From: a virus
DNA: 64,000 nt
Direction: 5' to 3' (one strand)
IMG/VR virus record: IMGVR_UViG_3300000976_000012
Coordinates: 1-64,000 of that record
This document shows, piece by piece, positions 4,997 through 62,094 of the stretch. The notes under the pieces are model-generated. The model was given only the letters and a program-made list of their open reading frames with translations, was not told where the DNA came from and ran no database searches. A program made the translations under genes and the position numbers. Every line of letters starts with the position of its first letter. Position 1 is the first letter of the stretch.

Positions 4997-5278
4997 TCAC
5001 TTGCTGCGTTTGCGAGGGTTCACCTTAGCATCGTCATCTTCGCTATCTACGTCGCCGAGATCGGTATCGGTCGCTGGCTCGAAGGTGAATTTGCAACGGG
5101 TTTCGTTTGTTTTCTCGTTACCCGTAGTGATTGTGATGGTATCCGTAGCATTAACCTCCAGATGCTCTTTGTCTTCATTCGAGATGATTTGACCTTCACC
5201 CTTTTTGAAGGGGATTCCGCCGTATGTATAAATACGACCGTGAGCGAGAGTGGCTTTCCAAGCCTTGGTATCCGACAT
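4997..5278 (-). CDS. small head-associated protein, putative
   Basis: 93 aa immediately after the MCP gene. C-terminus is KVNPRKRSK (basic tag family). Confidence 0.45.
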   Translation of the reverse strand: MSDTKAWKATLAHGRIYTYGGIPFKKGEGQIISNEDKEHLEVNATDTITITTGNEKTNETRCKFTFEPATDTDLGDVDSEDDDAKVNPRKRSK

Positions 5279-5328
5279 TGTATTGATCCTTCCTGCTGCT
5301 TCTTATGCTGCTGGTTTGGTTGAAACGG

Positions 5329-5365
5329 TAGACGGGAACTTAACGCGTAAGTTCCCGCCCGTCTA
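5329..5365 (-). terminator. strong stem-loop after the major capsid gene
   Basis: TAGACGGGCGGGAACTTA-cgcgt-TAAGTTCCCGTCTA (9 bp plus 6 bp with a bulge), 20 nt after the MCP stop. The U-tract is weak. Confidence 0.45.
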
Positions 5366-5384
5366 TTCGTTTCTCGTTTCCTTA

Positions 5385-6317
5385 TTAGGAACCGAGGTTG
5401 GTCAGCTTAACCGCTGCGTCAACTTCTTCGATTGCGAAGCCGATGCGCATGGTAAGCACGATGACCCAGCTACGTGCACGAATGTCACGTTCGCGCTCGA
5501 TCCGCACATTCCGTTGAAGGCCAAAGATGACATTCTTCGGATCGATCATAAGACCGTTTGCTTCCGGCATAAGTGCCACGCCCTGAAGCGGAACGCCCAG
5601 AACTGGAAGTGGTGCGTTGCCAAGCAACGTCGCGTCGCCAAGATCGGTGCCACGGCTGGCAACCTGCACGCGATAGTCACTCTCGACGTCCATCGAGTTG
5701 AGGTAACGCAGCGTACTCAGGTTTCGGCGATATCGAGTAGGCATCGCTTTCTTCAGATCGTTGAACACGTTGATCGAGATCGGGGAACCTGTAGCATCGA
5801 CCACGTTGGTGTTCACCATTTTGAGAACGCCGTCCAACGTCGCAAGGTATGCGTCACTAGATGCGGTGTCACCCGCGATCAGAAGCTCTTCGAGGTCAAG
5901 CGCTACGCGCTCAGCAAGCAACGTCATAATGGTGTCAGCCATTTGGTCGCGCTCAATGTTATCTTCGAGCAAATCATCGTGGAGATGGATTTCCGCAATA
6001 TACTCAGTCGTAGACAGGTTGACCTGACCAAAGTCCGGGACGGCGCGATCAACAGCATCGAGGTGCCGAGTATTCGAGCCGTCGTCTTGTGCGCCACCGC
6101 TGCCCGTATTAGGCGCAGGGCGTAAGACGCGAGAACCAAACCCTATTTTAGGGATTTTCATCTCAGGTGCGTTCATTGGCTGCTGGCGAACCTGATTGAT
6201 TAAGGTCGGCTCATCAATGATGTTTTGAAAAAAGGTGTTCTGATGCTCAGGGTCGAGCACGCCACCATTTGCGGTAAGATCGGCAAGAGCCAAATCTGCG
6301 CGTTGCACTTTATCCAT
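5385..6317 (-). CDS. major capsid protein (HK97-fold family)
   Basis: 310 aa with a capsid-family-like sequence. Lies after the protease and scaffold genes, has a GAAGGAA SD, and is followed by a stem-loop. Confidence 0.8.
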   Translation of the reverse strand: MDKVQRADLALADLTANGGVLDPEHQNTFFQNIIDEPTLINQVRQQPMNAPEMKIPKIGFGSRVLRPAPNTGSGGAQDDGSNTRHLDAVDRAVPDFGQVNLSTTEYIAEIHLHDDLLEDNIERDQMADTIMTLLAERVALDLEELLIAGDTASSDAYLATLDGVLKMVNTNVVDATGSPISINVFNDLKKAMPTRYRRNLSTLRYLNSMDVESDYRVQVASRGTDLGDATLLGNAPLPVLGVPLQGVALMPEANGLMIDPKNVIFGLQRNVRIERERDIRARSWVIVLTMRIGFAIEEVDAAVKLTNLGS

Positions 6318-6367: not shown

Positions 6368-7873
6368 TTACTTGGCGTGGCGACTGCCAGCGGCGCGAAG
6401 AATGTTGTTAGCAGTTTGGCTGCTCTCGCTAGTCTTCTTGGCTGGCTTGCTTTCATCACCAGATACATCATCTGCTCCCTTTTGGGTTTGGCCACGTGCG
6501 TTGTCCGCCGCCACCCGCTCTGCGAGTTCTTTACGAGCCTCGCCAGCATCCTCTTCAGCCTTAGTGGCTTTGGCTTCCGCCGCTTCCACCTTGTCATTCA
6601 AGGGTGCTACGGCCTTCTCGACTGCCGCCTTGACGGTGGCCTCCAGATCAGTACCGTTATCGTCCGACGCATCTGCATCGGCTGATTTCGTTTTGGATGT
6701 TTTCGCCGCGTCGTCGGACTTGGTTACTTCTCCATATTCATCGACAAGCTGAGCGGTCACATCGGTGAGCGCCTCAAGCGTCTGCATAGCAGCGCTCTTC
6801 AGCTTAGTAACGACCTCATCCGAGTAACCGGAATAGTCGGCATCCATGATGATCCAACGTAGCGTCATCACAACGTCAAGAATATCCATCACGCCATAAG
6901 CGTTAACTTTCTTGACTGTGACAGGAACGCCCGCTTTCTTGGCTTGCGCCATTACGCCGTCTATCTTTTCTTTCAGAGCCGCGTGTTCATCTTCGACCGG
7001 CTCCGCGTCCGGCAAGATCAATTGCGTCAGTGGGAAGCTGGCACGCTGCACGGTATCATCTGCGTCAAAACGCACAACGCTAGCTGTATCACCACCAATC
7101 TTTTCAATCGTGGCGAGCTTGCCTTTCATTTCATGATCTTCGTCTGCCACTCGGACGACCGAACCGGCTGCGATAACGGGCGTGTCATCAGACTTAGCAG
7201 CAGCACTATCATCGCCGGGTTTGTCGTCATCTGATTTTGCTACATCATCCTTATCCGCGTCGTCATCGGACTTGGTGGCATCATCTGTATCATTGTCAGA
7301 TTTGGCAGCGTCATCACCGTTGTCATCAGACTTAGACGTGTCGTCTTTGTCGCCTGCATCGTCGTCTGATTTTGTGGCATCACCATCGTCGTCAACGTCA
7401 ACGTCTTGTTCGTCTGCGGTCTTGCCGACAAACGCAGCAACGCCGTCAGCAACGCCATCAATCCGCTTGACAGAGCCTGTCTCAAATTTGAGCGTATTGT
7501 CTTCATCACTGGAAACTTCAAAGGTCTTTTCGGTTTCGATAATCTGGTAACCGTCGTAACCTCCTTCATCCAACCACGCCTTGACGGCGGTTTCATCGGC
7601 AAACTGGCTGTCACCGTCGCCTTTTTGGAAGTCAAATTGCATGACGGCAAAGCCCTTTGGAGCTATCGCCGCCACAGTGCTCTTACTGGCTTTGCGTTTC
7701 ATGTTTGGTTCCTTTACATTATCTTTGTCTCCGCATGCTTTCGCATCTGCTTTGACCACCGTGAACGGTTCTTTGTTAGCCCCGGCTGTCACCATTGAGA
7801 CGAATGCGGGGTTGGGATCGGTCAGCGCTGTCGCTGTCATGGTCTTTGTGATCGGTTTGATCTTCATGGTCAA
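6368..7873 (-). CDS. acidic scaffold-like protein
   Basis: 501 aa, very acidic, with KSDD-type repeats. Lies between the protease and MCP genes. ATGA overlap with the protease gene. Confidence 0.5.
   Translation of the reverse strand: MTMKIKPITKTMTATALTDPNPAFVSMVTAGANKEPFTVVKADAKACGDKDNVKEPNMKRKASKSTVAAIAPKGFAVMQFDFQKGDGDSQFADETAVKAWLDEGGYDGYQIIETEKTFEVSSDEDNTLKFETGSVKRIDGVADGVAAFVGKTADEQDVDVDDDGDATKSDDDAGDKDDTSKSDDNGDDAAKSDNDTDDATKSDDDADKDDVAKSDDDKPGDDSAAAKSDDTPVIAAGSVVRVADEDHEMKGKLATIEKIGGDTASVVRFDADDTVQRASFPLTQLILPDAEPVEDEHAALKEKIDGVMAQAKKAGVPVTVKKVNAYGVMDILDVVMTLRWIIMDADYSGYSDEVVTKLKSAAMQTLEALTDVTAQLVDEYGEVTKSDDAAKTSKTKSADADASDDNGTDLEATVKAAVEKAVAPLNDKVEAAEAKATKAEEDAGEARKELAERVAADNARGQTQKGADDVSGDESKPAKKTSESSQTANNILRAAGSRHAK
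7184..7411 (-). repeat. degenerate tandem acidic repeat (KSDD units) in the scaffold-like gene
   Basis: aa 155-230 read DVDVDDDGDATKSDDDAGDKDDTSKSDDNGDDAAKSDNDTDDATKSDDDADKDDVAKSDDDKPGDDSAAAKSDD. Confidence 0.7.
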
Positions 7874-8555: not shown

Positions 8556-8556
8556 A

Positions 8557-9516
8557 TTATTCCCAAACGAGACGCGACCGGCAATGGCCGTGGATGGGTG
8601 GTACTACCACACCAAGTGCTAGCAGTTGCGCTTCGTTAAGGCCGCGCACGTCATCTAGTCTTAGCCACGGTGTGATCGTTTTGATCTCTTCTGGTGTTGC
8701 TGTTGCTATACGGTCTGCGAGTATGTTGACATCTTGTGCTTTCCATCGTTTGCCTGCCAACTCCAAACATATCGCAGATGTCTTGCTGTCACGCACAATG
8801 GTATAGACGATGTGGCGCTTACCCATAAACACGCCGGTTTTGATATAGCCGTAATGGTACGCACGTGATGCCGACGCATTGGCCACGATATTCCAGTAAG
8901 GCACACTGCGCAGGCGGCGATCTAACAACTCGCGAATAGCTTGCAGTTCTTGTAGGTCATTAGACGTACCATTGAGCACGGCACTATGCACCGCATCGAC
9001 AAGCACAGGCATTACCTGTGTGTTGAAATAATTATTGGTGTAGTATTTCGCGCTCTGCGACATACCGGTAACAATACGCAAACGCTCAGTATCTGAAAGT
9101 GGCAAACTAAGTGGTACCTCGTGTTGTCCGAGCAACGTGGCACCGTCCAGAGCAATACCCACCTTAGCTTCAAGAGTGGACGGCCATGAATTGTTATCCC
9201 ATATAGCTGCCGAAGTGGCAGCGGCGGTGGCGACTGAGTTCTCATTGAGGCCGTCGCGATCAAGAGCGTCCAGTATTGGTTCCTCTACTTCGTCCGCAAG
9301 GCTTGATGCGTTTTCGGACAGCAACTCTGTCAGGTCCGCCTCGCTGTCCACGAACGGTGCATCACCTGTATCTATCTTCAGCGCAGTACGCAGCCCTGTA
9401 TAATCGCGGACGCGCCGTTCAAGTTGCATAACAGACAAATCATTGAGAATGCTTTCTGTAGCATTTGCACCACAACATCCGCACCTCGGATCGTGTTGAT
9501 CAAGATGGAAGTCCAT
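8557..9516 (-). CDS. minor head / head morphogenesis protein (SPP1 gp7 / Mu F-like)
   Basis: 319 aa with the segment IVRDSKTSAICLELAGKRW, typical of this family. TAATG overlap with the portal gene. Confidence 0.6.
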   Translation of the reverse strand: MDFHLDQHDPRCGCCGANATESILNDLSVMQLERRVRDYTGLRTALKIDTGDAPFVDSEADLTELLSENASSLADEVEEPILDALDRDGLNENSVATAAATSAAIWDNNSWPSTLEAKVGIALDGATLLGQHEVPLSLPLSDTERLRIVTGMSQSAKYYTNNYFNTQVMPVLVDAVHSAVLNGTSNDLQELQAIRELLDRRLRSVPYWNIVANASASRAYHYGYIKTGVFMGKRHIVYTIVRDSKTSAICLELAGKRWKAQDVNILADRIATATPEEIKTITPWLRLDDVRGLNEAQLLALGVVVPPIHGHCRSRLVWE

Positions 9517-11321
9517 TACGCAGCCTTATCGGTAGTAGTGTCGTCGTTCTCTGGATTAGAGCGAGTGCGTTTTGGTGGGTCATATCGTTTCTTGGATGCA
9601 AGCTCTAACACGTCGCGCAAATTACCTATTGCATGTCTCACTTGTCTAGGACCACCGTCTGTTTTGGTCGCGTCATCGTCATCATCTGCAACGGGTTGCA
9701 CGAGATTACTCTCGTTATTGCCAAGTTCGCCGCTTGCGTCATCGATCTCTTTTATGATGTCGTCAAAGCCCATGAGCTTACCTTGTGTGGCGAGTGCCTG
9801 CACAATCATAAATGGGTAGTTGCCCCATTCTTCTTCGACTAAAGACACGTCCAAACCGAATTGCTCGTTGGCCAAACCAATAGCTACGTTCGGCGTCATA
9901 GCGCCCACACTGTTGAAGGCAGACACAGCCTCAATGACCTCTTTCGGATCGGATATGCGAGGTGGGTTAGAGCGCACTTCCCAATACTCCACACCATACG
10001 GTGCTAACAAATGACGATTAACAAAATCATCTATCATTTCGCGCTCAGGACCAAACACCTGACCCTCTGCCACCTCATATGAAGTCTGCGCACTGGCACG
10101 TGTATAATCCTCCGAGTGGCCTGTGAAGATTGGCGGCAAACGGAAACTCGAACGCACCTTCTTGATCTGTGCGGCGTCGTATTCGAGAAACTGACCATCA
10201 TCGATCTTATCACCGGCTAGAGGCTTCAACTCAACTTTAGGAGCCGGAATAACTCCGTCGCGTGCAGCGGCGTTCTCATCACCTTCGACCTCTAGCAACA
10301 GCACGCGGTTATGGCTTGCGCGCCCACGGGCAGCGGTCACGTGCTCCTCAATTTGATCAATTGCATCACCCGTAAGAATGCCACCCGATACCAAAACAGC
10401 CATTGCCGGGATGGCGTTCTCTTTAAAATAATCAAGGTTGGTCAACTCGGCCTGACGCGAACCTTGGATCGCGACTAAGTTATTAAACCAGCGGGGAAGG
10501 CCGTAGAATTGGCCGGGGTAGTATTGCTTGAACATCACGATCTCTGTCGCAGTATCTTCAAACGCTAGGTTCGGTGTAACCTTGCCGTCCTTCGGATTGA
10601 CAAAACGGGGGTCACCAAATTCCTTAAACCAGATTTTCTTCGTTCCCAGTATTTGGATAAAACGCCGGAACCGACGTCGTACCATCGCATCAACACGCTT
10701 GCCAAAGCGCTCTTCAGACACATCCACTTCAACTTCATCCATATCAACAGACGTCGCCCGAACTGTATGTGCAGGGATATGGGATATGAAAATTGGCATA
10801 CCTTCTTTGGTGCGCCCGATCTCCAAATACCCAAAGCCAAGCGTCTCCATATCCCACCGAACGCGTTTGCGTATCTCGGTCATAGATTGCTCTGGATGAA
10901 GTGTTTCTAAGAAGCTCTCAATATGCTCCTTTTCCTTTTTGGATGCATCGGATTGGTCTCCGCCATCCGGTCCAGTGTATTCCATGCGCTGGCCGTGACC
11001 TTCGATATTGATCACCATTGTTTCTATGCACTGACGCAAAATCGAGTTGTCATTTGGCATACGCAACAGCGCAGCTAAGTTGACCGGAGGAGGCAAGATA
11101 CGCAGTTCCGATGTGCCGGACGCCGTGTACAGGCTCTGTTCTTTGAACGGGTCTTCTAACTGATTAGAGAAAGTGGCTCCGCGCTGAATATCTTGTAGTA
11201 CCTCGTCATCATCAACCTCTGTACCACGTCCTTTGAGAGAACCTAGATTGACGGCGCGACGAGTACGACGCTTGGGCGAATTGCCTACATTTCTCTCTAT
11301 CTGGTTTGAACGCTTTATCAT
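9516..11321 (-). CDS. portal protein
   Basis: 601 aa with a portal-like core, immediately upstream of the minor head protein. The C-terminal tail carries VQPVA (palindrome) and YDPPKRTR. Confidence 0.75.
   Translation of the reverse strand: MIKRSNQIERNVGNSPKRRTRRAVNLGSLKGRGTEVDDDEVLQDIQRGATFSNQLEDPFKEQSLYTASGTSELRILPPPVNLAALLRMPNDNSILRQCIETMVINIEGHGQRMEYTGPDGGDQSDASKKEKEHIESFLETLHPEQSMTEIRKRVRWDMETLGFGYLEIGRTKEGMPIFISHIPAHTVRATSVDMDEVEVDVSEERFGKRVDAMVRRRFRRFIQILGTKKIWFKEFGDPRFVNPKDGKVTPNLAFEDTATEIVMFKQYYPGQFYGLPRWFNNLVAIQGSRQAELTNLDYFKENAIPAMAVLVSGGILTGDAIDQIEEHVTAARGRASHNRVLLLEVEGDENAAARDGVIPAPKVELKPLAGDKIDDGQFLEYDAAQIKKVRSSFRLPPIFTGHSEDYTRASAQTSYEVAEGQVFGPEREMIDDFVNRHLLAPYGVEYWEVRSNPPRISDPKEVIEAVSAFNSVGAMTPNVAIGLANEQFGLDVSLVEEEWGNYPFMIVQALATQGKLMGFDDIIKEIDDASGELGNNESNLVQPVADDDDDATKTDGGPRQVRHAIGNLRDVLELASKKRYDPPKRTRSNPENDDTTTDKAA
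9687..9700. repeat. 14-bp palindromic motif copy 3
   Basis: Lies inside the portal 3' end and is translated V-Q-P-V-A. Confidence 0.9.
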
Positions 11322-13005: not shown

Positions 13006-13026
13006 TTTTTCCCTTTCGACCATACA

Positions 13027-14939: not shown

Positions 14940-15374
14940 TTATTCTGGAAGTTTCCTGCGCCGCTTTGGTGGGTCAACCTTCTTGGGTTCTTGTTCGCTT
15001 TTGGCGACGATCTCATTCCGACGTAATTGAATGCATTGCTCTAGGTTATCCAAAAAGTATGACTGGTCATCCGGCGTGTCGTGAATAATCTGTTCGATCT
15101 CAATCATATCATATGACCGCTCACGCCACTCGCTGATCTTATCTTCGGCAGGTGCCGGGATAGGTGCTTCCTCTGGTGGGGCACCAAACCGCTCGTCCTC
15201 AATAGGGACGTCATCTGGTTCTTTCTCGGCAAATATGTTGTTGAGGTAACCCATGAGGCCGTACTTGTCTGTAGGTACTGCGTGATCTTGATACTCTGGG
15301 TCTAATGCTTTGGCATCAGCTTGCGTGCCAACTAGGCGCGGCCCGTCTTCGGTACTGCAAATATAATAGTCCAT
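14940..15374 (-). CDS. hypothetical acidic protein with C-terminal VDPPKRRRK tag
   Basis: 144 aa. The cassette leader GTCGAAAGGGA precedes the ATG. Confidence 0.65.
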   Translation of the reverse strand: MDYYICSTEDGPRLVGTQADAKALDPEYQDHAVPTDKYGLMGYLNNIFAEKEPDDVPIEDERFGAPPEEAPIPAPAEDKISEWRERSYDMIEIEQIIHDTPDDQSYFLDNLEQCIQLRRNEIVAKSEQEPKKVDPPKRRRKLPE

Positions 15375-20283: not shown

Positions 20284-20891
20284 AGTGCTCTCAATTTACT
20301 CACATAGTGGTGTTCAATATATAACAAACTCTCAAGATAGAACGGGCCAAACGCCTGCGTAAATTCAATGTCCGTGATCCTACCATCTTCAACTGTGTAC
20401 ATGGATCGATTGACGGGGTCCCAGTCTTCTTCGTGGGCCTCCACGTATGCTTTCAGTTTCTCGTAAACCACATCACTCAAAAGAGCTTTGCCCAAATGCT
20501 TGCGCAGCCCGAACTCTGTCACAAAGCAGGGATAGACCATCGGCCAATGTTTACTTTCAAAATCTATGTCGTCTTGCCATGACAGGCTTATATCCACCCG
20601 ATACTGAACCGTAGGTGGTATGGTCTTCTCCCATAGCTTGTCACGAACGATCATGCATGGAAACATCCGGGGATCGGGAATGTCTGTAGGGGACGGGTGA
20701 CAAGATGCGTGTGACTTCTGACCAAATGCGAGAGGACGTGCTTCCGGCACATGCCTAAAGAAATTGGCCACAGTGATTGTGTCGTCACGCTGCTCTTCTA
20801 ATTGCATAGCGTGACATGGTGGCTTCCTACGTCGCTTGGGTGGGTTGATAACTGGAGCGACACGGCGGCGCTTGGGTGGGTCAACTTGCAT
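20280..20891 (-). CDS. hypothetical protein with tandem N-terminal DPPKRRR/NPPKRRR tags
   Basis: Start moved to ATG 20891 (AAAGGAAG SD). N-terminus is MQVDPPKRRRVAPVINPPKRRRKPP. Confidence 0.6.
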   Translation of the reverse strand: MQVDPPKRRRVAPVINPPKRRRKPPCHAMQLEEQRDDTITVANFFRHVPEARPLAFGQKSHASCHPSPTDIPDPRMFPCMIVRDKLWEKTIPPTVQYRVDISLSWQDDIDFESKHWPMVYPCFVTEFGLRKHLGKALLSDVVYEKLKAYVEAHEEDWDPVNRSMYTVEDGRITDIEFTQAFGPFYLESLLYIEHHYVSKLRAL

Positions 20892-35636: not shown

Positions 35637-35950
35637 TATTGCCCCGGTGGTATTTGATAAGTGTACAGTCCGCGATGAACGTGCCTCTTATCTACTCGGT
35701 AACCGCCAAAGCGTTCTTTTCGGAGATTGCGTAACTGAGCAGATATGGAAGCGGGCGGGTCTCCGGTAACTTCTGCTATTTGATCCAGCGTGCGCCACTG
35801 GCCGTCCAACATGAGGTCTCTAACCCTTCGTATCTGCTCGGTTAAACGCCTAGTTGCATCCGGGTTCATATCTGGCCCACTGAAATCAAGGTTCGGTCGT
35901 ATTCTTCTGCGGCGTGATCGCGGGTTCACTTGCTCTGGATCATACGTCAT
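35636..35950 (-). CDS. winged-helix DNA-binding protein, putative
   Basis: Start set at ATG 35950 (ATGA overlap). WRTLDQIAEVTGDPPASISAQLRNLRKERFGGYRV looks wHTH-like. N-terminus has VNPRSRRRRIRP. Confidence 0.55.
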   Translation of the reverse strand: MTYDPEQVNPRSRRRRIRPNLDFSGPDMNPDATRRLTEQIRRVRDLMLDGQWRTLDQIAEVTGDPPASISAQLRNLRKERFGGYRVDKRHVHRGLYTYQIPPGQ

Positions 35951-39245: not shown

Positions 39246-39249
39246 CTGC

Positions 39250-45367: not shown

Positions 45368-47370
45368 CGCCTCCTACGGCTCTGAGGACGGTCGATAGAT
45401 TGCTTGCGCTCACGCTCCCTTGGCCGCACCTTCTTACGGCGTAGCGGTGACGTGCTATCTCCTTCACCTCCTCGGACAACCTGCATGTTGTTTCTGATCT
45501 CGCGAGACAGCAAGGCACCTTGTACGGCCCCGGCAAGGGCGTCAGCAATATCCTTGGTTCCACGGGGCGGGTGATCCACTTTGTTACGCTGCTGATACCA
45601 TTCAACTGTTGCTAGTTCCAGCCGCAAGCCCTCGCAATCGCCTTGGATGTCGAGACGATCCTGATAGATCATATCCCTCAAATCCTCGTATGGAACCGGG
45701 GTACGGTCCACACTAATGACTTCCGAATGGATGCCTGCCTTGCGTACTTGTTGAATTGTTTCGCTCGATGCAAAACCATCGAACGTCACTGATTTCAAGT
45801 TCACCCCGTGCTGTAAGAGAGACAGCAAGAAACCCCTTACCTCTGCAATATCTATTTCATGCACTGCATTTGGCTTGATGCCGATACCTGCCACCACGGT
45901 CAACTGTGGCACCTTCTCATATACATTGCCCTCACTACCTTCCAATTCCTTCAGTACCATACCCTCAAATCGTACAAGACAAATACCACATTTATCTCCG
46001 CTCTTGGATAAATCGGCATGAGCGAAGTGTGGTCGATCAAGCACGTTCTGCGGTGGAAACATGTCTAGCTCCCATTCTGGCATACCGTCCGTAGCAAGCT
46101 CGTATTCGTCTTGTTTGGTAAGCATAGGCACCTCCCGGTCGATCCCGCGTTGCATCGCTTTTGTGATCTTGTTTCTACGTCTGAAGAATGGCGTGATCGC
46201 ATCAGTGGCGACGCCCACTACATCTCGCAGTGCCGCGTCAGGGTCTTTCAAAAAGTCTGGTTTGTACGGCATCGGTATAGACAGAATTTCACCGTCATCT
46301 GGGAAGTGAATACCTCGCTCATCTCCCTCCTCTAGCACCCGTGTCAGATACTCATCTGTACCTACCAAAATATCAAACGTGTCGTAATTACCGTCGGAAA
46401 AACGAGGGTTCACTTCATACTGCTTATGACGGAATGACAGATGATTTGGCTCATAATCTCTGTTGGCTCTAGTCTCAACAGCGGCAATCGTATCCATCTC
46501 ATCGATCTTACGATCTAAGAAGTCCATCCGGTAACGTGTCGATGATACCGTGCAGATGTTACCAATAGACATACCACGGGTTGTGTAAGAGCGCTTCCTA
46601 CGACGTGAGATATTTGAGTAAATGATCTCAGCTTGATCGAAGTGACCGCCAAGGCCCTGCGGACCTGCTACTGTCTTTGAGTTTTCCACAATCTGCATGA
46701 AGTTGACCTCATCCAAAATCGCGCCTGCCACAGCTTGACCTAGAATTGTTTGCAAGCTCGCTGCTGCCGGGATGATGTGGACGTTGTTCGACAACTCCAG
46801 AACACTTTCCTTACGCTCATTCCACTGGCACCACTTACGAACATAAGGCATGTTCAAAAACATCGCCCGAAACGGCTCGTAGAGCACTCTCTTCGTCACT
46901 GTTGGGTTTACACTCTGAAGCATGAATACCATGGGCGTCATTGGTGTTAGTCCGAACAACTTCTGTGGCACATCAAAGCACGTAGAGAGATACACCTGAT
47001 ATGCGATACTGGCTGTGGATAAGTGAGACTTACCTGTACCTGTAGCGCCCCCTAGCAACACCTCGTGAATGGGTGTCTCCCCTGCCAGAACATCTGGGTT
47101 CATCCTGCGTAGGTCATCTCTCAACGTGTGCCAGATAGCAAAGTCCACGCCAGCCAAAAACTCTTCGCTATCCACGAACTCGTCTATGGTAACAGGAACC
47201 TTATTCATGCGCGATATAGCGTTAAAGAAATCCGGATTGTTGTGGTCGATTATTTGCTCAGCCGCATTGCGAAATATCTCGCCAGTCCGATGCATACCGG
47301 ATGCCAACGCATGCTTATACGCCCGCTCCGCTGCGACTTTCTTGTCCCTCAGAGGGTCGATACGGGTCAC
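45364..47370 (-). CDS. terL: terminase large subunit
   Basis: 668 aa. Walker A LLGGATGTGKS, Walker B AILDEVNFM, and a C-terminal RNaseH-like nuclease region (ADLSKSGDKCGICLV, VTFDGFASSE, KDIADALAGA). Confidence 0.85.
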   Translation of the reverse strand: MTRIDPLRDKKVAAERAYKHALASGMHRTGEIFRNAAEQIIDHNNPDFFNAISRMNKVPVTIDEFVDSEEFLAGVDFAIWHTLRDDLRRMNPDVLAGETPIHEVLLGGATGTGKSHLSTASIAYQVYLSTCFDVPQKLFGLTPMTPMVFMLQSVNPTVTKRVLYEPFRAMFLNMPYVRKWCQWNERKESVLELSNNVHIIPAAASLQTILGQAVAGAILDEVNFMQIVENSKTVAGPQGLGGHFDQAEIIYSNISRRRKRSYTTRGMSIGNICTVSSTRYRMDFLDRKIDEMDTIAAVETRANRDYEPNHLSFRHKQYEVNPRFSDGNYDTFDILVGTDEYLTRVLEEGDERGIHFPDDGEILSIPMPYKPDFLKDPDAALRDVVGVATDAITPFFRRRNKITKAMQRGIDREVPMLTKQDEYELATDGMPEWELDMFPPQNVLDRPHFAHADLSKSGDKCGICLVRFEGMVLKELEGSEGNVYEKVPQLTVVAGIGIKPNAVHEIDIAEVRGFLLSLLQHGVNLKSVTFDGFASSETIQQVRKAGIHSEVISVDRTPVPYEDLRDMIYQDRLDIQGDCEGLRLELATVEWYQQRNKVDHPPRGTKDIADALAGAVQGALLSREIRNNMQVVRGGEGDSTSPLRRKKVRPRERERKQSIDRPQSRRRR

Positions 47371-52628: not shown

Positions 52629-52642
52629 TGCAACCCGTTGCA
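52629..52642. repeat. 14-bp palindromic motif copy 16
   Basis: Lies in the leader of the ParB operon, 15 nt downstream of TGACATAAAAT and 65 nt upstream of ATG 52564. Confidence 0.9.
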
Positions 52643-52669
52643 CCTGCAAAAGCGTATATTTTATGTCAC
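52641..52669 (-). promoter_or_regulatory. cassette promoter variant (GTGACATAAAAT)
   Basis: The -35-like GTGACA overlaps the stop of 52666..53265. There is no good -10 at 17 nt. The palindrome sits downstream, not upstream. Confidence 0.4.
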
Positions 52670-53265
52670 GCTCTCTTGCGCTTTGGTGGGTTAATGAATC
52701 GAGAAGGTAGGATGCCCTTTGGCTTACTGACTTCAGGAAAGCCCCAAAAGAAACGGATAGGGTCTCGTAGATCACGCGACAGAAATAAGTCTCGGCTGAT
52801 GCCTGCTTCTGTAGCGAACGCTTCCCAAAACTCTCCATCTTTAGGCAACCCTACCGGATAAACCTCATCATATGATCGATACATTTTGACAGGCGACATC
52901 ACCAACATAGTCCACCAAGCACCGTGTTTGTAATTCCGTGCCACAAAGTCAAACCACGAACGCGGGTCCACAAAACGGGCATGAAGCAAGCGATGTGCTA
53001 GTTTGGACACGGGCAACCATTCTGTAGACTTTTCAATGGAATAGTCTTCTAGATGGGTGAACATATAACCAGCACCCTTCGGATCGTCAGGTCGAGTGTA
53101 CCCCGTAATGGAGCACACTGTTGGGTTGTTACCTCGCTGGTAGCGCTCCACTCGTTGGGGTTGGTTCACCCCATTTCGCGCTTGGGGACTGAAGCCGTTG
53201 TACCAGCGGTCCTTACTCACCTTACGCCCTGCGGCGATGTAATCGTTAAGCCCCTGCATCTTCAT
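52666..53265 (-). CDS. hypothetical protein, C-terminal INPPKRKRA
   Basis: 199 aa. Start overlaps the methyltransferase stop. No recognised domain. Confidence 0.6.
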   Translation of the reverse strand: MKMQGLNDYIAAGRKVSKDRWYNGFSPQARNGVNQPQRVERYQRGNNPTVCSITGYTRPDDPKGAGYMFTHLEDYSIEKSTEWLPVSKLAHRLLHARFVDPRSWFDFVARNYKHGAWWTMLVMSPVKMYRSYDEVYPVGLPKDGEFWEAFATEAGISRDLFLSRDLRDPIRFFWGFPEVSKPKGILPSRFINPPKRKRA

Positions 53266-53948
53266 TATGCGCGCTCCAAAATGACAGCGGCGTCTTCAGA
53301 CTTCTTGGAGCGGAACGTCTCTTTCCAGAGCGGGCCGATAGCTTCGATCTCAATGTCTGTGTTATAAATCGGGTGTGCCAGCCGGTTCCTATACGGTCCG
53401 TAGAGACGGCCTTCGAGCACTATGTACTCAATACCTGCATCGGCGGCGGCTTTGCCAAAAGCATGTCCAGCAGGTAGCCAAATATCGCGACCTGTCTCCA
53501 TGTGAACAGCGGCTTTGCCAAACGTAGTGGCAAAAAGCTCGGACAAAACACGACGACAAAGGAACGTATTGATCCCTTGGCTTACCCAGTCACGACACAT
53601 AACCGCAAATTCTTCGGTACGTACATCGAGCTTAGCTGTTTGGAGAGTAACCCCATCTGTGCGGACAAATTGGTTATAGGCGTCCACCGCCTTCTGGTTC
53701 ATTTCCAACCCAATGACAGGCCCCCACCCCATTTTCCGGGCACGGATCGATAACATCCCGTGACATGCGCCGAAATCGATAGCACCTCCGCGCTTGTCTT
53801 TAGGTACTTGCTCCATGGCAATACCCATTTGCTTATGGATGTTGGGGAGTTTTCCTTCATCCAGATATTTTTGGATGTGTTTGAAATGTCCGTAGATTGC
53901 GCCACCGTCTAATTTAGTGGGGTTCGGGTTTGTGTTTGCAGTTGTCAT
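53265..53948 (-). CDS. class I SAM-dependent methyltransferase
   Basis: Motif I AIDFGACHG and an acidic beta-2 end VIGLEMN. No DPPY/NPPY or C5 PC/ENV motifs, so the substrate is unclear. Confidence 0.65.
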   Translation of the reverse strand: MTTANTNPNPTKLDGGAIYGHFKHIQKYLDEGKLPNIHKQMGIAMEQVPKDKRGGAIDFGACHGMLSIRARKMGWGPVIGLEMNQKAVDAYNQFVRTDGVTLQTAKLDVRTEEFAVMCRDWVSQGINTFLCRRVLSELFATTFGKAAVHMETGRDIWLPAGHAFGKAAADAGIEYIVLEGRLYGPYRNRLAHPIYNTDIEIEAIGPLWKETFRSKKSEDAAVILERA

Positions 53949-57213: not shown

Positions 57214-58575
57214 TCAGGCGGCCTTTTCTTCCGCCTCCTCTTCGCTGGCTTCTTCTGTCTCGCCAACCGGGGTAGTAGTGATCTTCACACCAAAACGTGC
57301 TTCTGCCAGTTCCACGGTCTGTTCGAGTGTCATGTCAGAGCCATCCGAGTGACCACGCCAATCGTTCACAATATATGCAAACGCCTTGCCCATATCTTCC
57401 TCGCCGATTGCCGCCATGGCTTCCGTGATACCTTCATTGACGCCAATAGCATCTTCTTCCGCTACACTGAAGCTGAACTTAGTCATCTTCACGGTGTCAC
57501 CACCGCGAGTTGCGACTTCGTAGTTCTTCTTGATGTGCTCAGTAAGTTCATCGCGAGTAGTAGTCTTTGCCATTTCCAGCAAAGCGTCCTTGTCGCGCTT
57601 GAGATCGTCGATGGCGATCCGAGCAATTTCCTTAGCTTTCGACCAACCGATGTCAGCCAGTTCCGTTTCGCCGATATTGGCCAGCGAACACGCACGATAG
57701 ACTGAGATCAGATAGCGCGCCTTGCGATATTCCAGATCGAGCTCACCATCGATATAGTCTTTGAAAGCGTTCTTGCCGTCATAGCCCATCTGCTTATGGA
57801 TGCCGGTCTGGTCAACGTGGTCCAAAACACCACCAAGGGTGAAGTAAGTTCGCTCAACCTGCTCAATCAAATGACGGGCAGCGTCCGTGGCATTGTCCGC
57901 ATCGGACAGTGCTTTGGTGACTGATGCCATCGGAGCAATCTGCTCTGGCTCGGACTTCTTGACTTCCGTCTTTTTGTTCTTCGCTTCCGCTTTTGGTTTT
58001 TCTTCTTCAACAGGGGCCGACCTGGCAGCTTCGATAGCTTCAATGCGGTCTTTCTTGGTGACTGCATTCGAGATGTCCGCACCTTCGTCTTTGGCAATGG
58101 CCGCAATTTCCTTGACGGTCATCCGTTCATTCAGGGCGGGGAGGTCTTCAGAGGCGCTCTCGCTATCCCTGACCGCTTCACTGTCACCTGCTTCACTGTC
58201 ACCTGCTTCAGCTTCGCTGGAGTTATCTTCAGCTTCTTCGATGTCGTCACCGCCTTCAGCATCACCTGTTTCCAGTTCGGCTGCTTCGATTTCTGAGAGG
58301 AATACCCGCTCAGCATGTGACGGTTCACCACTGTCTTTATCCAGCAATTCGTTACCGTCTTCATCAACGCCTACAACTACAATGTCGCCTTCGCCTTCAT
58401 CGAAACGAATGATCTTCACAGGCATGTCTTTTTCGAGGATTTCTTCCTCTCCTTCGACTGCGGATGAGTATCCGTTAAACAAGGCGAACGCACCAGTTGT
58501 GATGCCTACTGCCTTAGCTTGAGCTTTGAGGCTCTGCTTGTCTTCGTCTGCCATTTTCTTCATCTCCTGTGGCAT
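57214..58575 (-). CDS. acidic HeH/SAP-motif protein
   Basis: 453 aa with a very acidic centre, HeH-like MTVKEIAAIAKDEGADIS, and a C-terminal helical domain with weak ParB-HTH flavour. Confidence 0.55.
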   Translation of the reverse strand: MPQEMKKMADEDKQSLKAQAKAVGITTGAFALFNGYSSAVEGEEEILEKDMPVKIIRFDEGEGDIVVVGVDEDGNELLDKDSGEPSHAERVFLSEIEAAELETGDAEGGDDIEEAEDNSSEAEAGDSEAGDSEAVRDSESASEDLPALNERMTVKEIAAIAKDEGADISNAVTKKDRIEAIEAARSAPVEEEKPKAEAKNKKTEVKKSEPEQIAPMASVTKALSDADNATDAARHLIEQVERTYFTLGGVLDHVDQTGIHKQMGYDGKNAFKDYIDGELDLEYRKARYLISVYRACSLANIGETELADIGWSKAKEIARIAIDDLKRDKDALLEMAKTTTRDELTEHIKKNYEVATRGGDTVKMTKFSFSVAEEDAIGVNEGITEAMAAIGEEDMGKAFAYIVNDWRGHSDGSDMTLEQTVELAEARFGVKITTTPVGETEEASEEEAEEKAA

Positions 58576-58623: not shown

Positions 58624-58652
58624 ACAATACGGCGCGACAGATTTTATGTCAA
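58624..58652 (-). promoter_or_regulatory. cassette promoter
   Basis: TTGACATAAAAT with a -10 TATTGT at 17 nt. The palindrome lies 8 nt upstream. 38 bp are identical to 38566..38603. Confidence 0.6.
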
Positions 58653-59272
58653 GAGAATAGTGCAACGGGTTGCACCGGCTCTAGTCCGTGTCTCTTACGT
58701 AAATTGAGGATAAGCCCCTTCTGTTCGTCATCGATTTCTATATGCTCGTCTGTCCAAACGCAAGCGGCGATTAACGCCAACACTGCTGCATCAGCTTCGT
58801 CGTCCTGCGGAATGTCCAACCCCCATCGTTCCTTCAAAGCCGCGATGACTGCGGGCTTAGGTGAATTACCCTTACCTGTGGCAAACTGCTTCAGTTCGTT
58901 TGGCGTCACCTCTATATAAGAGACGCCCATATCATGCAGTAATAAACGCGCTACACCTCCCCATTCCCCTATATTAGCGAGACGACCTCTCGATCCCATG
59001 CTGTACCCTTCGATAGCTAGCAAGGTGGGTAAAAGCCCACTGAAATTGTTTTCTAACTGATCCCGCAAACTAGCGAGCCGATGTGCTCCTCGTTTCTTTG
59101 TTTGCGGTTTGATGCACCCGTGCCTCATCTGCCCATATCGGATTGTGGCATCTCCCGTGCTGGTTAGAGATAAATCCAGTCCACTAAATTTCTCAGTGAA
59201 CGAAGGGAAACCTCCTATCGGTGCACCGTATAAAACTGGGTTACCTCGCTTGCGTTTAGGTGGATCAATCAT
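58649..59272 (-). CDS. RuvC-like Holliday junction resolvase
   Basis: GLDLSLTSTGDA, AIEGYSMG and DEADAAVLAL fit the RuvC acidic residues. Start ATG 59272 (ATGA overlap) gives the N-terminus MIDPPKRKRGNP. Confidence 0.6.
   Translation of the reverse strand: MIDPPKRKRGNPVLYGAPIGGFPSFTEKFSGLDLSLTSTGDATIRYGQMRHGCIKPQTKKRGAHRLASLRDQLENNFSGLLPTLLAIEGYSMGSRGRLANIGEWGGVARLLLHDMGVSYIEVTPNELKQFATGKGNSPKPAVIAALKERWGLDIPQDDEADAAVLALIAACVWTDEHIEIDDEQKGLILNLRKRHGLEPVQPVALFS
58661..58674. repeat. 14-bp palindromic motif copy 18
   Basis: Lies inside the last codons of the RuvC-like gene (P-V-Q-P-V-A-L-F-S-stop), 8 nt upstream of the -35. Confidence 0.9.
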
Positions 59273-60216
59273 AGGCTGAAACACAGATTGGCGCGACGGC
59301 AAGACTTGGCTTTCTTACAATCAATTGTGTCGCATATCTCACGTCGGGGGAGGGTACGCGCCCTGTTACTCCGAGCGATAATGCCGGCACGTCTAAACAA
59401 TGATTGTACTTGGCCTTCCCACTCATCTGCTTCGATACGATACTCTTTGTAAATCGACTTGTCTTTGGTCTTCCATTGAAAGTCTTTCCGGACATACAGT
59501 ATCTTGACGAAAGGAAATACTTGCATTCCGGCAAGGCGATAAAGCTCTCTGTACATCATCGCCTGCAATATATGATCTGCCAGAGCTTCCTTCAATTTGT
59601 CGAATTGCTCTTTATTCATGGATTTAACTTCGATCACCATATACCAGCCACGCTCCACAAGCGTGATGTCTGGTGAGCCAATGACACCTGCGGTATGATC
59701 AACCAATAGAGGTTCTTCGTAACGCGTCAACGACCCTCCACAGCGAGTGCACTTATGGCTTTCGTTTGGTTTGTTCAAATCTCGGACCTTGGAGCCTCCG
59801 CACCGACAACTCCACACTCCGTAAATACCCATGCCGCCACGCGATGCGATGATTCCGTCTTTGACATGCTTTTCGGCTGCGCGGCCTAATGCCCACACTA
59901 CCTTCATAGCCCCCTGCACCTCTTCACTCAACGGTAATCCGTACTGGTAGCTGATTACTTGCTCTCTTTCACAACAACCAATCAATGAAGATACATGCGA
60001 GTACCCTTCGATCCCTTCCTGCTTCGATCCCCCTGATCGGGTCTCGACCGGCACACGATCTGATCTCTCCAACATCTCTTTGAGCACATCGTTTTCGATA
60101 GTGGGAGCGCTAGAGGATATACCCGCCCCTTCTGGAATAGACGGGCGATCTGCAACCTGTTGCACAGGCCGAGACCTGCGTGCTTTACTTCCTATCGCGC
60201 TGAGCAAGCTACTCAT
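59269..60216 (-). CDS. Cas4/RecB-like PD-(D/E)XK exonuclease
   Basis: DITLV...VIEVKS and QAMMY motifs. Cys clusters CRCGG..CTRCGG and a C-terminal CDTIDCKKAKSC. Confidence 0.6.
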   Translation of the reverse strand: MSSLLSAIGSKARRSRPVQQVADRPSIPEGAGISSSAPTIENDVLKEMLERSDRVPVETRSGGSKQEGIEGYSHVSSLIGCCEREQVISYQYGLPLSEEVQGAMKVVWALGRAAEKHVKDGIIASRGGMGIYGVWSCRCGGSKVRDLNKPNESHKCTRCGGSLTRYEEPLLVDHTAGVIGSPDITLVERGWYMVIEVKSMNKEQFDKLKEALADHILQAMMYRELYRLAGMQVFPFVKILYVRKDFQWKTKDKSIYKEYRIEADEWEGQVQSLFRRAGIIARSNRARTLPRREICDTIDCKKAKSCRRANLCFSL

Positions 60217-60572
60217 TTCTTAGCCCCGTCTATCAGGGCATCCAATGCCCACGTTGGTATGACCGCAACGGAAACCGGGTCATTTTGATTATCAATCTCG
60301 ATCTCCAAAACCGGCAACTCTCCTACAGACAGGGCTTGCATCTCTATCGTCTCAATGATCTCACGGGTCACCCTGAAACTCTTGTGCTGCGTGGTCTTAG
60401 CCTCCAGTCGGACAATTCCCTCAATCTGTACGTCACCCTTACAGTCTCCTGCCCCTGATCCTTTGACCTGTTGAGCGCCAAGCCGGGCGGCAATGCTCGC
60501 CTCCTGTACCTTTGACCTCTTAACAGACGCGTGCTGTCCTTTCAGTCGCTTGGGCAGACGTAGCTCAGTCAT
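60213..60572 (-). CDS. small PD-(D/E)XK (Hjc-like) nuclease, putative
   Basis: 119 aa with GSGAGDCKGDV...RLEAKTT. Confidence 0.4.
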   Translation of the reverse strand: MTELRLPKRLKGQHASVKRSKVQEASIAARLGAQQVKGSGAGDCKGDVQIEGIVRLEAKTTQHKSFRVTREIIETIEMQALSVGELPVLEIEIDNQNDPVSVAVIPTWALDALIDGAKK

Positions 60573-61678
60573 AGATAATTACGGTCTAGGCCACGACTCT
60601 CTCGATAGTCGCCAATCAATCGCGTCTTGAAGTGGTCAAAGAAATCAAAGTTAGAGTACATATAATCTGCGATCTCTTGAAGCCTTCCAAACTTCTGATC
60701 TACCCCATCAACTCGCCATGTAGAGCCACCACCTGATACCACGCCAGTAGATTTACCCCACTTCACCACGGTCTCAGCATCATCTACAAAACCCTGACCA
60801 AGTGGGTGATCTGGATTACGGATCATCTTAAAATTGCCTTCACGGGGGCCGTTGCCTACCTTGTTCTTTTTGATGTTGAATGGATGCTCATTGTAGTCGA
60901 TCTGGTGATGGCCGTCGTCGTCTCGACCGTCCTTCTCTTTGTTCTTGAAATCGATCTTGATGCTGGCGAGATAGTGCTGCGCCGTGCCACCGGGCAGTAC
61001 ACGGGGGTCACCGTACACCTGCCCTACTTTGTAGCGCCACTGGTTGACCAAATAGACTGCGACATTATGTCCTCGATGTCGTTCCGCAATCATTTCTGAT
61101 TGGATCGTGGCACAAAACCGATTTATCAACCTAGCCTGTTCTGCAACCACTGCGTCCTCAAACGACTTTTGCTTGGTCTTCATCGGCATAATACCGGACA
61201 GACTATCGATCATAAGACAACTTACTTCAGCAGTCTTGATCATGGCCACAGCGATGTCGAGAGCCTGCTCTCCGTTCTCCGGTTGGACAAGAGCTAGGTT
61301 CTCGTTGTCGATGCCATGCACAGCGCCCCAATCAAGATCGTAGGTGCCTTCAGTGTCGATAAGTACAGGCGTTTTCTTTGGGTATTTTTTCTGCGCTTGT
61401 CCAAGCATTCGCAAACCCATAGTTGTTTTACCGCTGTGCTCCCATCCAAAACCGAGCGTAGCCAAGCCTTCTGGCAACCCACCAAACATGGCTATGTCAA
61501 GAGAAAAGATACCCGTGCTTATGTGTTTCCAACGTGGCTTCATATCAGCACGGGTCAATACAGCGGGGCCGTGCGCCTTAGAAATCATGCCCATGGCTTT
61601 GGATAGCTCAGAGCTGCTGTCATTCAGCGCGTTCTTCGCCACTTTCTTACGGCGTGCAGGTGGGTTCACATCGGTCAT
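60569..61678 (-). CDS. RecA-like recombination ATPase
   Basis: Walker A GWEHSGKTT and Walker B CLMIDSL. N-terminus is MTDVNPPARRKKV. Confidence 0.65.
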   Translation of the reverse strand: MTDVNPPARRKKVAKNALNDSSSELSKAMGMISKAHGPAVLTRADMKPRWKHISTGIFSLDIAMFGGLPEGLATLGFGWEHSGKTTMGLRMLGQAQKKYPKKTPVLIDTEGTYDLDWGAVHGIDNENLALVQPENGEQALDIAVAMIKTAEVSCLMIDSLSGIMPMKTKQKSFEDAVVAEQARLINRFCATIQSEMIAERHRGHNVAVYLVNQWRYKVGQVYGDPRVLPGGTAQHYLASIKIDFKNKEKDGRDDDGHHQIDYNEHPFNIKKNKVGNGPREGNFKMIRNPDHPLGQGFVDDAETVVKWGKSTGVVSGGGSTWRVDGVDQKFGRLQEIADYMYSNFDFFDHFKTRLIGDYRESRGLDRNYL

Positions 61679-62094
61679 AGTCTCTCCTCAAGTGAAGCGA
61701 CATCATCCACCTCACCAATTTCGTAGGACAGATAATCTTCCACCGTGCGGCTTGCGAAGTCATAGGTATGATCGATGTCGTCCTTATTTGGTTGGCAAGG
61801 TAGCTCCACTGCAACGTCTATTCTGGCAAACTCAAAGTTGCCAAGACTGCGTGTGACGCCCCCGGATACCCGAACTTTGGCAGGCGGTCCTTCTATCACG
61901 GGCACGGGTATCTTGACTTCACGCAAATTATCAGTGCCGTAGCTTGTCATGCGCACCAACACACTGCCATCAGGTGCGCTAAGCGCAGCCGCATCAGTCA
62001 TGTCTCTCAAAGGGATGCGAGACTTCCTTTTGGGTGGGTCAATCGCAGGTCTCTCTGGCACCTCAACAGGTATTTTCTTGGATCGTACTATCAT
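61675..62094 (-). CDS. hypothetical protein with IDPPKRKSR tag
   Basis: 139-aa ORF with a 4-nt overlap onto the RecA-like gene. Confidence 0.55.
   Translation of the reverse strand: MIVRSKKIPVEVPERPAIDPPKRKSRIPLRDMTDAAALSAPDGSVLVRMTSYGTDNLREVKIPVPVIEGPPAKVRVSGGVTRSLGNFEFARIDVAVELPCQPNKDDIDHTYDFASRTVEDYLSYEIGEVDDVASLEERL

Follow-up and report, generated by a model that had tools for sequence, protein, structure and literature searches.

Short basic peptides at the flexible ends of phage proteins are known from individual proteins that handle nucleic acids. In gp32 of phage T4, the N-terminal KRKST or 'LAST' motif is near-identical to the residues by which the same protein contacts single-stranded DNA (ssDNA), and the motif also binds to an acidic surface on the adjacent gp32 molecule (PMC12424627). 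In phi29, the N-terminal 14 residues of the connector are needed for binding of the packaging RNA (PMC1636484), and non-specific DNA binding by the N-domain of the terminal protein brings the machinery for replication to the nucleoid (PMC4974454). In addition, certain sequences within phage terminal proteins are functional nuclear localisation signals (NLSs), with nucleoid targeting and nuclear import being treated as independent functions (PMC4974454), and arginine-rich motifs of the bacterial RNase E bind RNA (PMC11964227). Here we describe a peptide, termed the tag (examples are MIDPPKRKRGNPV and MTEVRSRSRPAA), that recurs at the termini of unrelated proteins encoded in a stretch of 64,000 nucleotides of viral DNA (positions 1 to 64,000 of IMG/VR record IMGVR_UViG_3300000976_000012, in the following the window), including a RecA-like recombinase, a RuvC-like resolvase and the portal. 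Basic peptides that bind nucleic acids or acidic partners are already known on single phage proteins, as in the case of gp32, the connector and the terminal protein. In the literature we have found no description of one motif that is reused across most of the DNA-handling proteome of a phage, is conserved throughout a supergroup, switches between termini and forms genome-wide dialects.

In its mode of action, the tag would come closest to the LAST motif of gp32 or to the terminus of the phi29 connector. With gp32 it shares a short K/R-rich peptide on the flexible terminus of a phage DNA-handling protein, and certain tags fit the LAST composition, (Lys/Arg)3(Ser/Thr)2 (KRKS, KRTRS), or offer LAST-like readings (RTRSR, RSRSR), whereas many others do not (for example KRRRV and KRKRG). 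An SSB-like protein (SSB, a protein binding to ssDNA) of the same genome even starts with MAFKRKET, recalling the MFKRKST of T4 gp32. However, the LAST motif has been described for gp32 only, where it is involved in cooperativity, and contains neither a proline cap nor a hydrophobic position, whereas the tag is found on more than 15 unrelated proteins. The phi29 connector equally carries its terminal peptide on a portal, where it is required for nucleic-acid binding, but in this case a single protein interacts with a dedicated RNA. Within the 64-kb window we detected neither an Rfam family at the gathering threshold nor a tRNA gene and have thus discarded a packaging RNA or other known RNA encoded there as partner. 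Finally, phi29-type terminal proteins are replication proteins with NLS-like sequences, although there the function resides in a helical domain of about 70 residues in one protein and not in a motif of 8-11 residues distributed across the proteome.

A recurrent peptide at the termini of unrelated proteins

Nine instances of a shared terminal peptide had been listed in an initial annotation of the window, which was made from the sequence alone, and all nine were found where they had been placed, on genes of the minus strand (Table 1). The comparison with composition, which had been named beforehand as a check, confirms their excess. The motif [DN]PP[KA]R is found in 8 matches compared to 0.04 expected from 2000 within-protein shuffles, which keep the composition of each whole protein, and a form of seven residues, [DNS]P[PR][KAPS]R.[RKS], in 10 matches compared to 0.06 expected, with a maximum of 2 in any of 1000 shuffles. 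Also the described preference for termini is borne out, since all ten matches of the latter form are located within 20 residues of a terminus, with N-terminal calls depending on predicted starts. Under uniform placement of the matches in their own proteins, this would occur with a probability of about 2e-7. The RuvC start MIDPPKRKRGNP is called identically in a public assembly, and a 203-aa product starting with MQVDPPKRRR is on record for the protein whose N-terminus carries two tags (P0241). The assigned identities of RecA, RuvC and the portal agree with Pfam and PHROGs.

While every entry in the original list is real, the list is incomplete, as it had missed the N-terminus of the portal, the putative terminase, an exonuclease and a resolvase-like protein. 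The set further extends into a second public assembly, locus L009, which overlaps with the window over 5354 nt with 0 mismatches and continues the genome for 7.7 kb past position 64000. Similarly, the definition of the tag as [VIY][DN]PPKR is appropriate for the window but describes only one dialect, [VIY][DN]P[PR]KR.R..P, of a family whose core is hydrophobic-R-x-R-x-R(-P). In the window the tag reads hydrophobic-[D/N]-P-[P/R]-[K/A/S]-R-x-[R/K]-x-x-P.

Conservation of the tag in orthologues

To place the window among known phages, we have used the identity of the portal. The closest cultured relatives are the Rhizobium phages vB_RleS_L338C (L338C), P11VFA and RHph_I4 (50%) and Aeromonas phage HJ05 (44%), followed by the more distant Agrobacterium phage JP1 (38%), Rhodobacter phages (36%) and Pseudomonas SM1-like phages (32%). 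Of these, L338C is grown on R. leguminosarum 3841, HJ05 on A. hydrophila and SM1 on P. aeruginosa. A scan of IMG/VR returned one distant locus only.

Conservation is most extensively documented for RecA. An alignment of 81 homologues with 40-65% identity shows the consensus xxxxxxRxRxRxxxP, with R11 being at least 90% conserved, where the tag is followed by a linker rich in Pro and Ala, which varies both in length and in sequence, and then by the fold. In an AlphaFold2 model based on this alignment (with an overall predicted local distance difference test score, pLDDT, of 94), residues 1-23 form a coil preceding the first helix with pLDDT values of 68-79, and Pfam domain boundaries generally place the tags outside of folds. 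In case of the portal, nearly all homologues with 57-69% identity contain a C-terminal tag (INPPPRTRP, VDPPPRTRP, YNPPART, PAPRRRRV and others), at residue 6 several relatives carry a further tag, [IV]NPP[AP]R[TE]R, and distant portals end with VR[KHT]R[AV]R[GK]. In five metagenomic relatives (L002-L008), the N-termini of RecA and RuvC and the C-terminus of PolA (VVNPRPR[TA]RV) are tagged, and so are the orthologues of the ~145-aa protein after PolA, of the small protein that follows the capsid gene and of the multi-tag protein. The tags of RuvC orthologues are MIEPRARKRP in L005, SPAPRTRP in L006, VNPPSRRVP in L007 and MIVPRARTRPPVIVDPPRRTRP in L008. Orthologues of the portal, RuvC, the polymerase and RecA thus keep the tag, whereas a lack of conservation had been named in the initial annotation as evidence that would speak against it.

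The same is observed for smaller and less characterized carriers. Positional orthologues of the 139-aa ORFan (an open reading frame, ORF, without recognized relatives) next to RecA contain N-terminal tags in L338C (gp068, TVRTRNRVPPP) and HJ05 (a 112-aa protein, PPARPRRRL), those of the 93-aa protein end with a tag in L338C (gp023, PAARTRKRS-COOH), L002 (SPRARGRRVHPA) and L003 (EPRRRGR), and orthologues of the exonuclease carry N-terminal basic tags in HJ05 (MLLRRLRTR) and SM1 (LKRRRSS). In L005 and L007 the tag of the resolvase-like 119-aa protein is conserved, reading either LPKRLKG or LPKRLRG, and the loose tag of the 115-aa protein, QVNPRSRRRRIRP, has the form Phi-N-P-R-x-R-x-R that is also found at the C-terminus of PolA in relatives (VVNPRPRTRV). 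For the 203-aa protein, a dedicated search identified one relative only (P0242, 68% identity), which has retained both tags as VDVPKRRR and IDPPKRRRR. The homologue in L003 contains three (SPPPRSRP, EPRARSRP and NPPPRRP). An AlphaFold model of the 203-aa protein is unusable (pLDDT 36).

The tag also changes its location. RuvC is tagged at the N-terminus in the window and at the C-terminus in HJ05, PolA at the C-terminus in this genome and at the N-terminus in HJ05, where also DnaB is tagged, and the portal carries the tag at its N- and/or C-terminus across the family. Hence, selection keeps the tag on the protein and not at a given site. Taken together, the location in a disordered region (in RecA), the retention of the tag while flanks vary and the movement between termini (in the portal, PolA and RuvC) are what characterizes short linear motifs in general, a class of 3-11 residues with a small number of fixed positions. 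The comparison of sequences thus defines the tag as such a motif on a flexible tether and shows it to be under purifying selection.

At the level of DNA, the described variation of codons at wobble positions is generally observed, with the exception of the first proline codon, which is CCA in 8/8 strict tags. This codon accounts for 27% of proline codons genome-wide and for 43% (21/49) of first positions in other Pro-Pro pairs, leaving a residual bias of about 0.43^8 that is not shared by relatives and that may reflect either tag copying within the genome or a translational constraint. The DNA flanking different tag sites is unrelated, and relatives encode the peptide with CCG, CCA, CCT and other arginine codons. 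As suggested in the initial annotation, these features, together with the general preference of Pro-Pro pairs for CCA as first codon and the retention of the motif in the RecA homologues, indicate that selection acts on the peptide.

A lineage trait with dialects

To investigate the distribution of the tag, we have searched the N-terminal 30 and the C-terminal 25 residues of all proteins of a genome for basic motifs and compared the numbers to within-protein shuffles, using our own codon-usage-based gene caller, which recovered 136/166 annotated stops in L338C and made 0 wrong-strand calls in the window. The motif R.R.[RK] was observed 16 times in L338C compared to 4.5 ± 2.2 expected (21 compared to 5.6 with annotated genes) and 20 times in HJ05 (expected 2.7 ± 1.5). 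For [KR]R.[RK], we found 21 instances in the window (expected 6.1 ± 2.4), 22 in JP1 (expected 8.5) and 22 in SM1 (expected 7.5). The signal is thus clear in L338C and HJ05 and weaker in JP1 and SM1, where, with increasing evolutionary distance, the tag becomes more generic and approaches a basic cluster. In contrast, R.R.[RK] counts show that the tag is absent from the control phages lambda (1, expected 1.7), T7 (2, expected 1.3) and Rhizobium phage 16-3 (3, expected 2.2), the latter sharing the host genus of L338C at a GC content of 59%, and weak at most in phiKMV (5, expected 1.5), at 62% GC. The tag is therefore a lineage trait of a supergroup of siphoviruses of about 80-110 kb and not a property of a host clade or of GC content. 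A host partner restricted to alpha-proteobacteria, such as PopZ or a type IV secretion signal, was discarded, since relatives infecting Aeromonas and Pseudomonas are tagged and Rhizobium phage 16-3 is not.

When terminal tags are aligned on the core [RP].R.[RK], individual genomes display distinct preferences. In the window, the two residues preceding the core are [DN] (11/21) followed by P (11/21), with the first core position often being P, followed by K. In L338C a V precedes the first R in 12/25 tags, whereas this residue is mostly P in L002-L008 and A or P in HJ05. Since L338C, L002-L008 and HJ05 differ at similar GC content (59-63%), composition alone does not account for the dialects, although it probably does so for the abundance of K in the window dialect. 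The dialects could reflect tag copying within a genome and not co-evolution with a partner.

Tagged proteins and the proposed function of the tag

Tags are found on 8/15 annotated DNA-handling proteins of the window and L009, namely PolA, the SSB-like protein, RecA, RuvC, the exonuclease, the resolvase-like protein, the terminase and the portal, compared to 0/10 metabolic, capsid-shell, protease or tail proteins (Fisher p = 0.006, for functional classes that we have assigned ourselves from sparse annotation). With only DNA-handling proteins among the carriers of known function, the distribution favours an arm contacting nucleic acids or a hub for replication and packaging over a signal for capsid cargo. 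It thereby narrows the roles considered in the initial annotation, docking to a common partner, a signal for localisation or packaging and a nucleic-acid-contacting arm, while the data choose none of them.

From the sequence features described above and the precedents among single proteins (gp32, the phi29 connector and terminal protein, RNase E), we tentatively favour the view that the tag serves as a portable arm for docking to polyanions, by which DNA-handling proteins would be tethered to the phage DNA, with both the partner and the tethering function being inferred. In such an arm, the prolines would hold the tag as an extended stretch, whose arginines and lysines would contact a polyanion, most likely the phosphate backbone of the phage DNA. 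The arm would thereby keep proteins that act in replication, recombination and packaging concentrated on their substrate. If correct, this would provide a simple modular way for phages that apparently lack a sliding clamp to hold enzymes on their genome and it would account for many unannotated terminal extensions.

Several observations weigh against a role as DNA tether. The non-basic positions of the tag are conserved, namely [D/N]-P, the hydrophobic position and the P at the end, which, together with the existence of dialects at similar GC content, goes beyond the requirements of non-specific backbone binding and looks like co-evolution with a specific partner. In relatives, a tag ([AV]IDPPAR[TV]R) is located within the E/A/P-rich acidic linker of a scaffold-like protein, which is not expected to bind DNA. 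The remaining carriers are small ORFans for which neither Pfam nor PHROGs provides a function, and several DNA-handling proteins of this genome, the helicase, DnaB, primase and the ParB-like proteins, are untagged. Finally, the shuffles ignore the locally basic composition of disordered tails, a limitation that is only partly addressed by the control genomes.

Alternative explanations

It is possible, though in our view less likely than a DNA tether, that the tag docks onto a single hub protein encoded by the phage and acts as a zip code for assembling a factory for replication, recombination and packaging. The trait is specific to a lineage whose hosts include alpha- and gamma-proteobacteria and it is absent from the unrelated phage 16-3 of the same host genus, and this independence of the host clade points to a partner that is borne by the phage. 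Genome-wide dialects at non-basic positions despite similar GC content, the shift between termini, as found for docking motifs, and the presence, in every lineage, of one protein that contains 2-3 tags in tandem, suggestive of multivalency, are equally consistent with a hub, as is the binding of the gp32 LAST peptide to the acidic surface of a neighbouring protein (PMC12424627). Candidates for a hub are the SSB-like protein with its acidic tip DDVPF, an acidic 453-aa protein, the acidic linker of the scaffold-like protein and an AAA+ ATPase of the family. The acidic candidates are present and conserved, with the SSB-like protein ending with DDVPF, DDDVPF or DDEPF, the 453-aa protein found as a gene of similar size at the same position in L005-L008 and L338C, and the scaffold-like protein containing a KSDD linker in the window. 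The 453-aa protein might be an acidic partner of tags and the 501-aa scaffold-like protein one for the tags of head proteins. Speaking against a hub, part of the difference between dialects tracks GC content (K-rich at 50% in the window, A/P/T-rich at 60-63% in relatives), dialects could originate from within-genome copying of tags, and the generic basic cluster of distant relatives is at least equally compatible with a partner that is bound electrostatically, such as DNA. With a hub code, the members of a viral factory, ORFans among them, could be read from the sequence, and its organiser would become accessible. In a more specific form of the same idea, which we regard as somewhat more doubtful, a single phage-encoded receptor would read the motif including its non-basic positions and gather tagged proteins into one compartment or condensate, with the dialect co-evolving with the receptor. 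This would constitute an analogue of signal-based protein sorting for a bacterial virus, operating in the bacterial cytoplasm.

The use of one short terminal peptide on unrelated proteins also resembles encapsulin cargo-loading peptides, the T4 capsid-targeting sequence and motifs binding to clamps or SSB tails, which direct proteins to a common destination or hub and work from either terminus, although to our knowledge their sequences are unrelated to the tag. By analogy, tagged proteins might be loaded into procapsids and possibly be ejected with the DNA. A signal of this kind would be in line with the tags on both ends of the portal and on the small capsid-adjacent protein, with those on scaffold-like and pre-portal proteins of relatives and with the huge acidic linker of the scaffold-like protein, which could bind basic peptides. 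We nevertheless consider it improbable, since most known tagged proteins (PolA, SSB, RecA, RuvC, exonuclease) are needed in the cytoplasm during replication and the terminase works from outside of the capsid. In addition, we know of no sequence likeness between the tag and established capsid- or encapsulin-targeting peptides.

Slightly less credible still is a regulatory element, either as degron or unfoldase tag of the ClpX or Lon type or as site of EF-P-dependent pausing at DPP, NPP or PPP. D-P-P, P-P-P and P-P-K are strong contexts for polyproline stalling, and basic C-terminal tails such as that of MuA can be ClpX signals. The use of CCA as first proline codon in 8/8 tags also hints at a constraint at the level of translation. 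However, polyproline stalling cannot be the conserved function because the core RxRxR is found without Pro-Pro in L338C, HJ05 and most RecA homologues, the location of tags at both termini and internally is unlike that of classical degrons, and there is no reason why a degron should be limited to DNA-handling proteins.

That the tag has no selected peptide function and is a by-product of a DNA repeat, ribosome-binding sites or composition appears very improbable. The strict sites do share the sequence RAYCCACCNAARCG, which occurs 6 times on the coding strand and 0 times on the opposite one, and another C-terminal peptide of this genome, [KR]RA[IV]x[LI]-COOH, does originate from ribosome-binding sites. 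Still, unrelated flanks and the use of other codons in relatives rule out a DNA-level repeat or mobile mini-element, and ribosome-binding sites are excluded by the location of tags downstream of starts or about 100 nt away from the next gene, as for the 199-aa ORFan, whose downstream neighbour starts at this distance. Composition or GC bias is ruled out by the shuffles and the four control genomes (including one of high GC content and one from an unrelated phage that shares the host genus), and RecA homologues at 40-65% identity have retained the motif.

The likeness to a monopartite NLS (K-K/R-x-K/R, as in PKKKRKV of SV40), to which the initial annotation had drawn attention, is formally correct for P-P-K-R-K/R-R and the KRKR, KRRR and KRTR cores on disordered termini, where K-R-x-R after prolines fits the consensus. 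A signal acting in a eukaryotic nucleus is nevertheless scarcely conceivable, despite the functional NLSs of phage terminal proteins (PMC4974454), since the hosts are bacteria without importin, the genes show a prokaryotic architecture (location on one strand, coupling by ATGA/GTGA overlaps and Shine-Dalgarno (SD)-like sites), the cultured relatives infect proteobacteria, and the core is found only in the window dialect, with most relatives containing RxRxR with the small residues T, S or A at x, which fits the consensus poorly.

Other known motifs were discarded. The tag resembles an AT-hook (P-R-G-R-P, binding to the minor groove) in its proline-flanked R-x-R within a disordered region, often as P-R-[T/S/A]-R-P in relatives, but the central glycine is absent from all strict tags of the window and from the instances of the family core that we have inspected (which contain T, S, A, K, R or P). 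R-G-R is present in a few loose terminal matches of HJ05 and L338C, and Pfam AT_hook shows no match on tagged proteins. A twin-arginine (Tat) signal, defined by an N-terminal S/T-R-R-x-F-L-K with a hydrophobic region and a cleavage site after it, is incompatible with the absence of a hydrophobic stretch after the tags, the C-terminal location of many of them and the cytoplasmic enzymes carrying them. The disordered regions of RNase E offer a bacterial example of such motifs, including NDPR (ALNDPREKRRLQRE), which binds PNPase and superficially resembles Phi-N-P-R-x-R-x-R, but it has an extra residue and needs a helical segment following it (PMC11964227). The resemblance is thus a loose one, and nothing ties the phage tags to PNPase.

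Table 1. Tags, their carriers and further features of the window and locus L009.
Feature	Position	Strand	Tag or basis of assignment
93-aa protein (4997-5278) downstream of major capsid gene, C-terminus	5000..5023	-	loose tag VNPRKRSK-COOH
Scaffold-like acidic 501-aa protein, between protease and capsid genes	6368..7873	-	untagged in window
S78-type protease region, capsid gene and scaffold-like gene	window	-	Pfam/PHROGs
Portal	9516-11321	-	Pfam and PHROG
Portal, C-terminal tail, residues 580-587 of 601	9561..9584	-	YDPPKRTR
Portal, N-terminus, residues 15-22	11256..11279	-	SPKRRTRR (within NSPKRRTRRAV), second portal tag
Acidic 144-aa ORFan (14940-15374), C-terminus	14955..14978	-	VDPPKRRR(KLPE-COOH)
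203-aa protein (20280-20891), N-terminus	20826..20885	-	tandem VDPPKRRR and INPPKRRR
115-aa protein (35636-35983), near N-terminus	35894..35929	-	loose tag
Putative large terminase, basic C-terminal tail	45403..45429	-	tag-like VRPRERERK (KVRPRERERK)
Helicase; class II ribonucleotide reductase; TauD-like oxygenase	window	-	Pfam/PHROGs
PAPS-reductase-like protein between two ParB-like proteins; methyltransferase	window	-	Pfam/PHROGs
199-aa ORFan (52666-53265), C-terminus	52669..52698	-	FINPPKRKRA-COOH
Conserved acidic 453-aa protein (isoelectric point 4.4, acidic C-tail), adjoins RuvC	57214..58575	-	
RuvC-like resolvase	58649-59272	-	Pfam/PHROGs; ATG start
RuvC-like resolvase, residues 2-9	59246..59269	-	IDPPKRKR
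Cas4/RecB-like exonuclease	59269-60216	-	Pfam/PHROGs
Cas4/RecB-like exonuclease, residues 11-17	60166..60186	-	tag-like KARRSRP (SKARRSRP)
Second resolvase-like protein, 119 aa	60213-60572	-	Pfam/PHROGs
Second resolvase-like protein, residues 6-11	60540..60557	-	tag-like LPKRLK (LPKRLKG)
RecA/UvsX-like recombinase	60569-61678	-	Pfam RecA 7.6e-40
RecA/UvsX-like recombinase, residues 4-13	61640..61669	-	VNPPARRKKV
139-aa ORFan (61675-62094), just upstream of RecA, residues 18-26	62017..62043	-	IDPPKRKSR
Strict Pro-Pro tag sites	62026-62040, 61652-61666, 59252-59266, 52678-52692, 20868-20882, 20832-20846, 14961-14975, 9567-9581	-	
PolA, C-terminus	L009, just beyond window position 64000		LSPRKRKRVCV-COOH
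144-aa protein	L009, just beyond window position 64000		MSQINPRPRRRG
SSB-like protein, N-terminus	L009 6445-7563, beyond window		DPAPRKRRATP; C-terminal end DDVPF

Genome organisation and further observations

All long ORFs of the window are located on the minus strand, with a GC content of about 50%. The genome contains about 100 genes on one strand, many of which overlap by ATGA or GTGA, and SD-like sites precede 40% of starts compared to a background of 13%. The window belongs to a tailed phage of a bacterium. Database records place its portal (P0001) and its RecA (P0121) each on a contig of 93,409 bp.

The putative large terminase (45364-47370), for which the PHROG match is weak and the corresponding gene of L338C is annotated as large terminase, is located about 34 kb away from the portal. 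The ORF of 550 aa directly before the portal (11371-13023) has no family match and is not detectably a terminase in Pfam and PHROG searches, and megablast and tblastn found no match of this region in GenBank phages. The linker of the scaffold-like protein (with its repeat part at about 7170-7410) is extremely acidic and of low complexity, with repeated KSDD and DDxxK units.

The SSB-like protein is encoded at 6445-7563 in L009, 6218-7399 in L007 and 6047-7156 in L008, in each case with an SSB-type acidic tip (DDVPF, DDEPF or DDDVPF), and the syntenic gene of JP1 is annotated as 'ssDNA binding protein'. A gp32 or SSB family was not detected, with no match in Pfam and only a function-less family in PHROGs.

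A cluster at 49013-53948 combines the TauD-like oxygenase, the PAPS-reductase-like protein (PHROG 2302, E = 6e-101), the two ParB-like proteins, the tagged 199-aa ORFan and the methyltransferase. Also in L338C, ParB-like genes flank a PAPS reductase. The cluster may constitute a DNA-modification module, which would matter if tags tell phage from host DNA.

Certain homologues of tagged proteins are enlarged, including a RecA of 611 aa (P0140) and portals of 939 and 979 aa (P0112 and P0120), and contain HNH, intein or LAGLIDADG Pfam domains, which suggests that inteins or homing endonucleases have inserted into the genes for RecA and the portal in this group of phages.

Another peptide that recurs at C-termini, [KR]RA[IVF]x[LI]-COOH, is found on about ten proteins between 23710 and 41529 of the window, with examples at 38775-39296, 36165-36458, 34548-34958, 34201-34551, 24899-25468, 24510-24902 and 41209-41529. 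Its K-R-A codons form SD-like sequences (AAGAGGGC, AAGAGAGC or AAAAGAGC) that precede the overlapping start of the next gene (ATGA or GTGA) by 8-13 nt, and the peptide is a by-product of translational coupling and not a protein tag.

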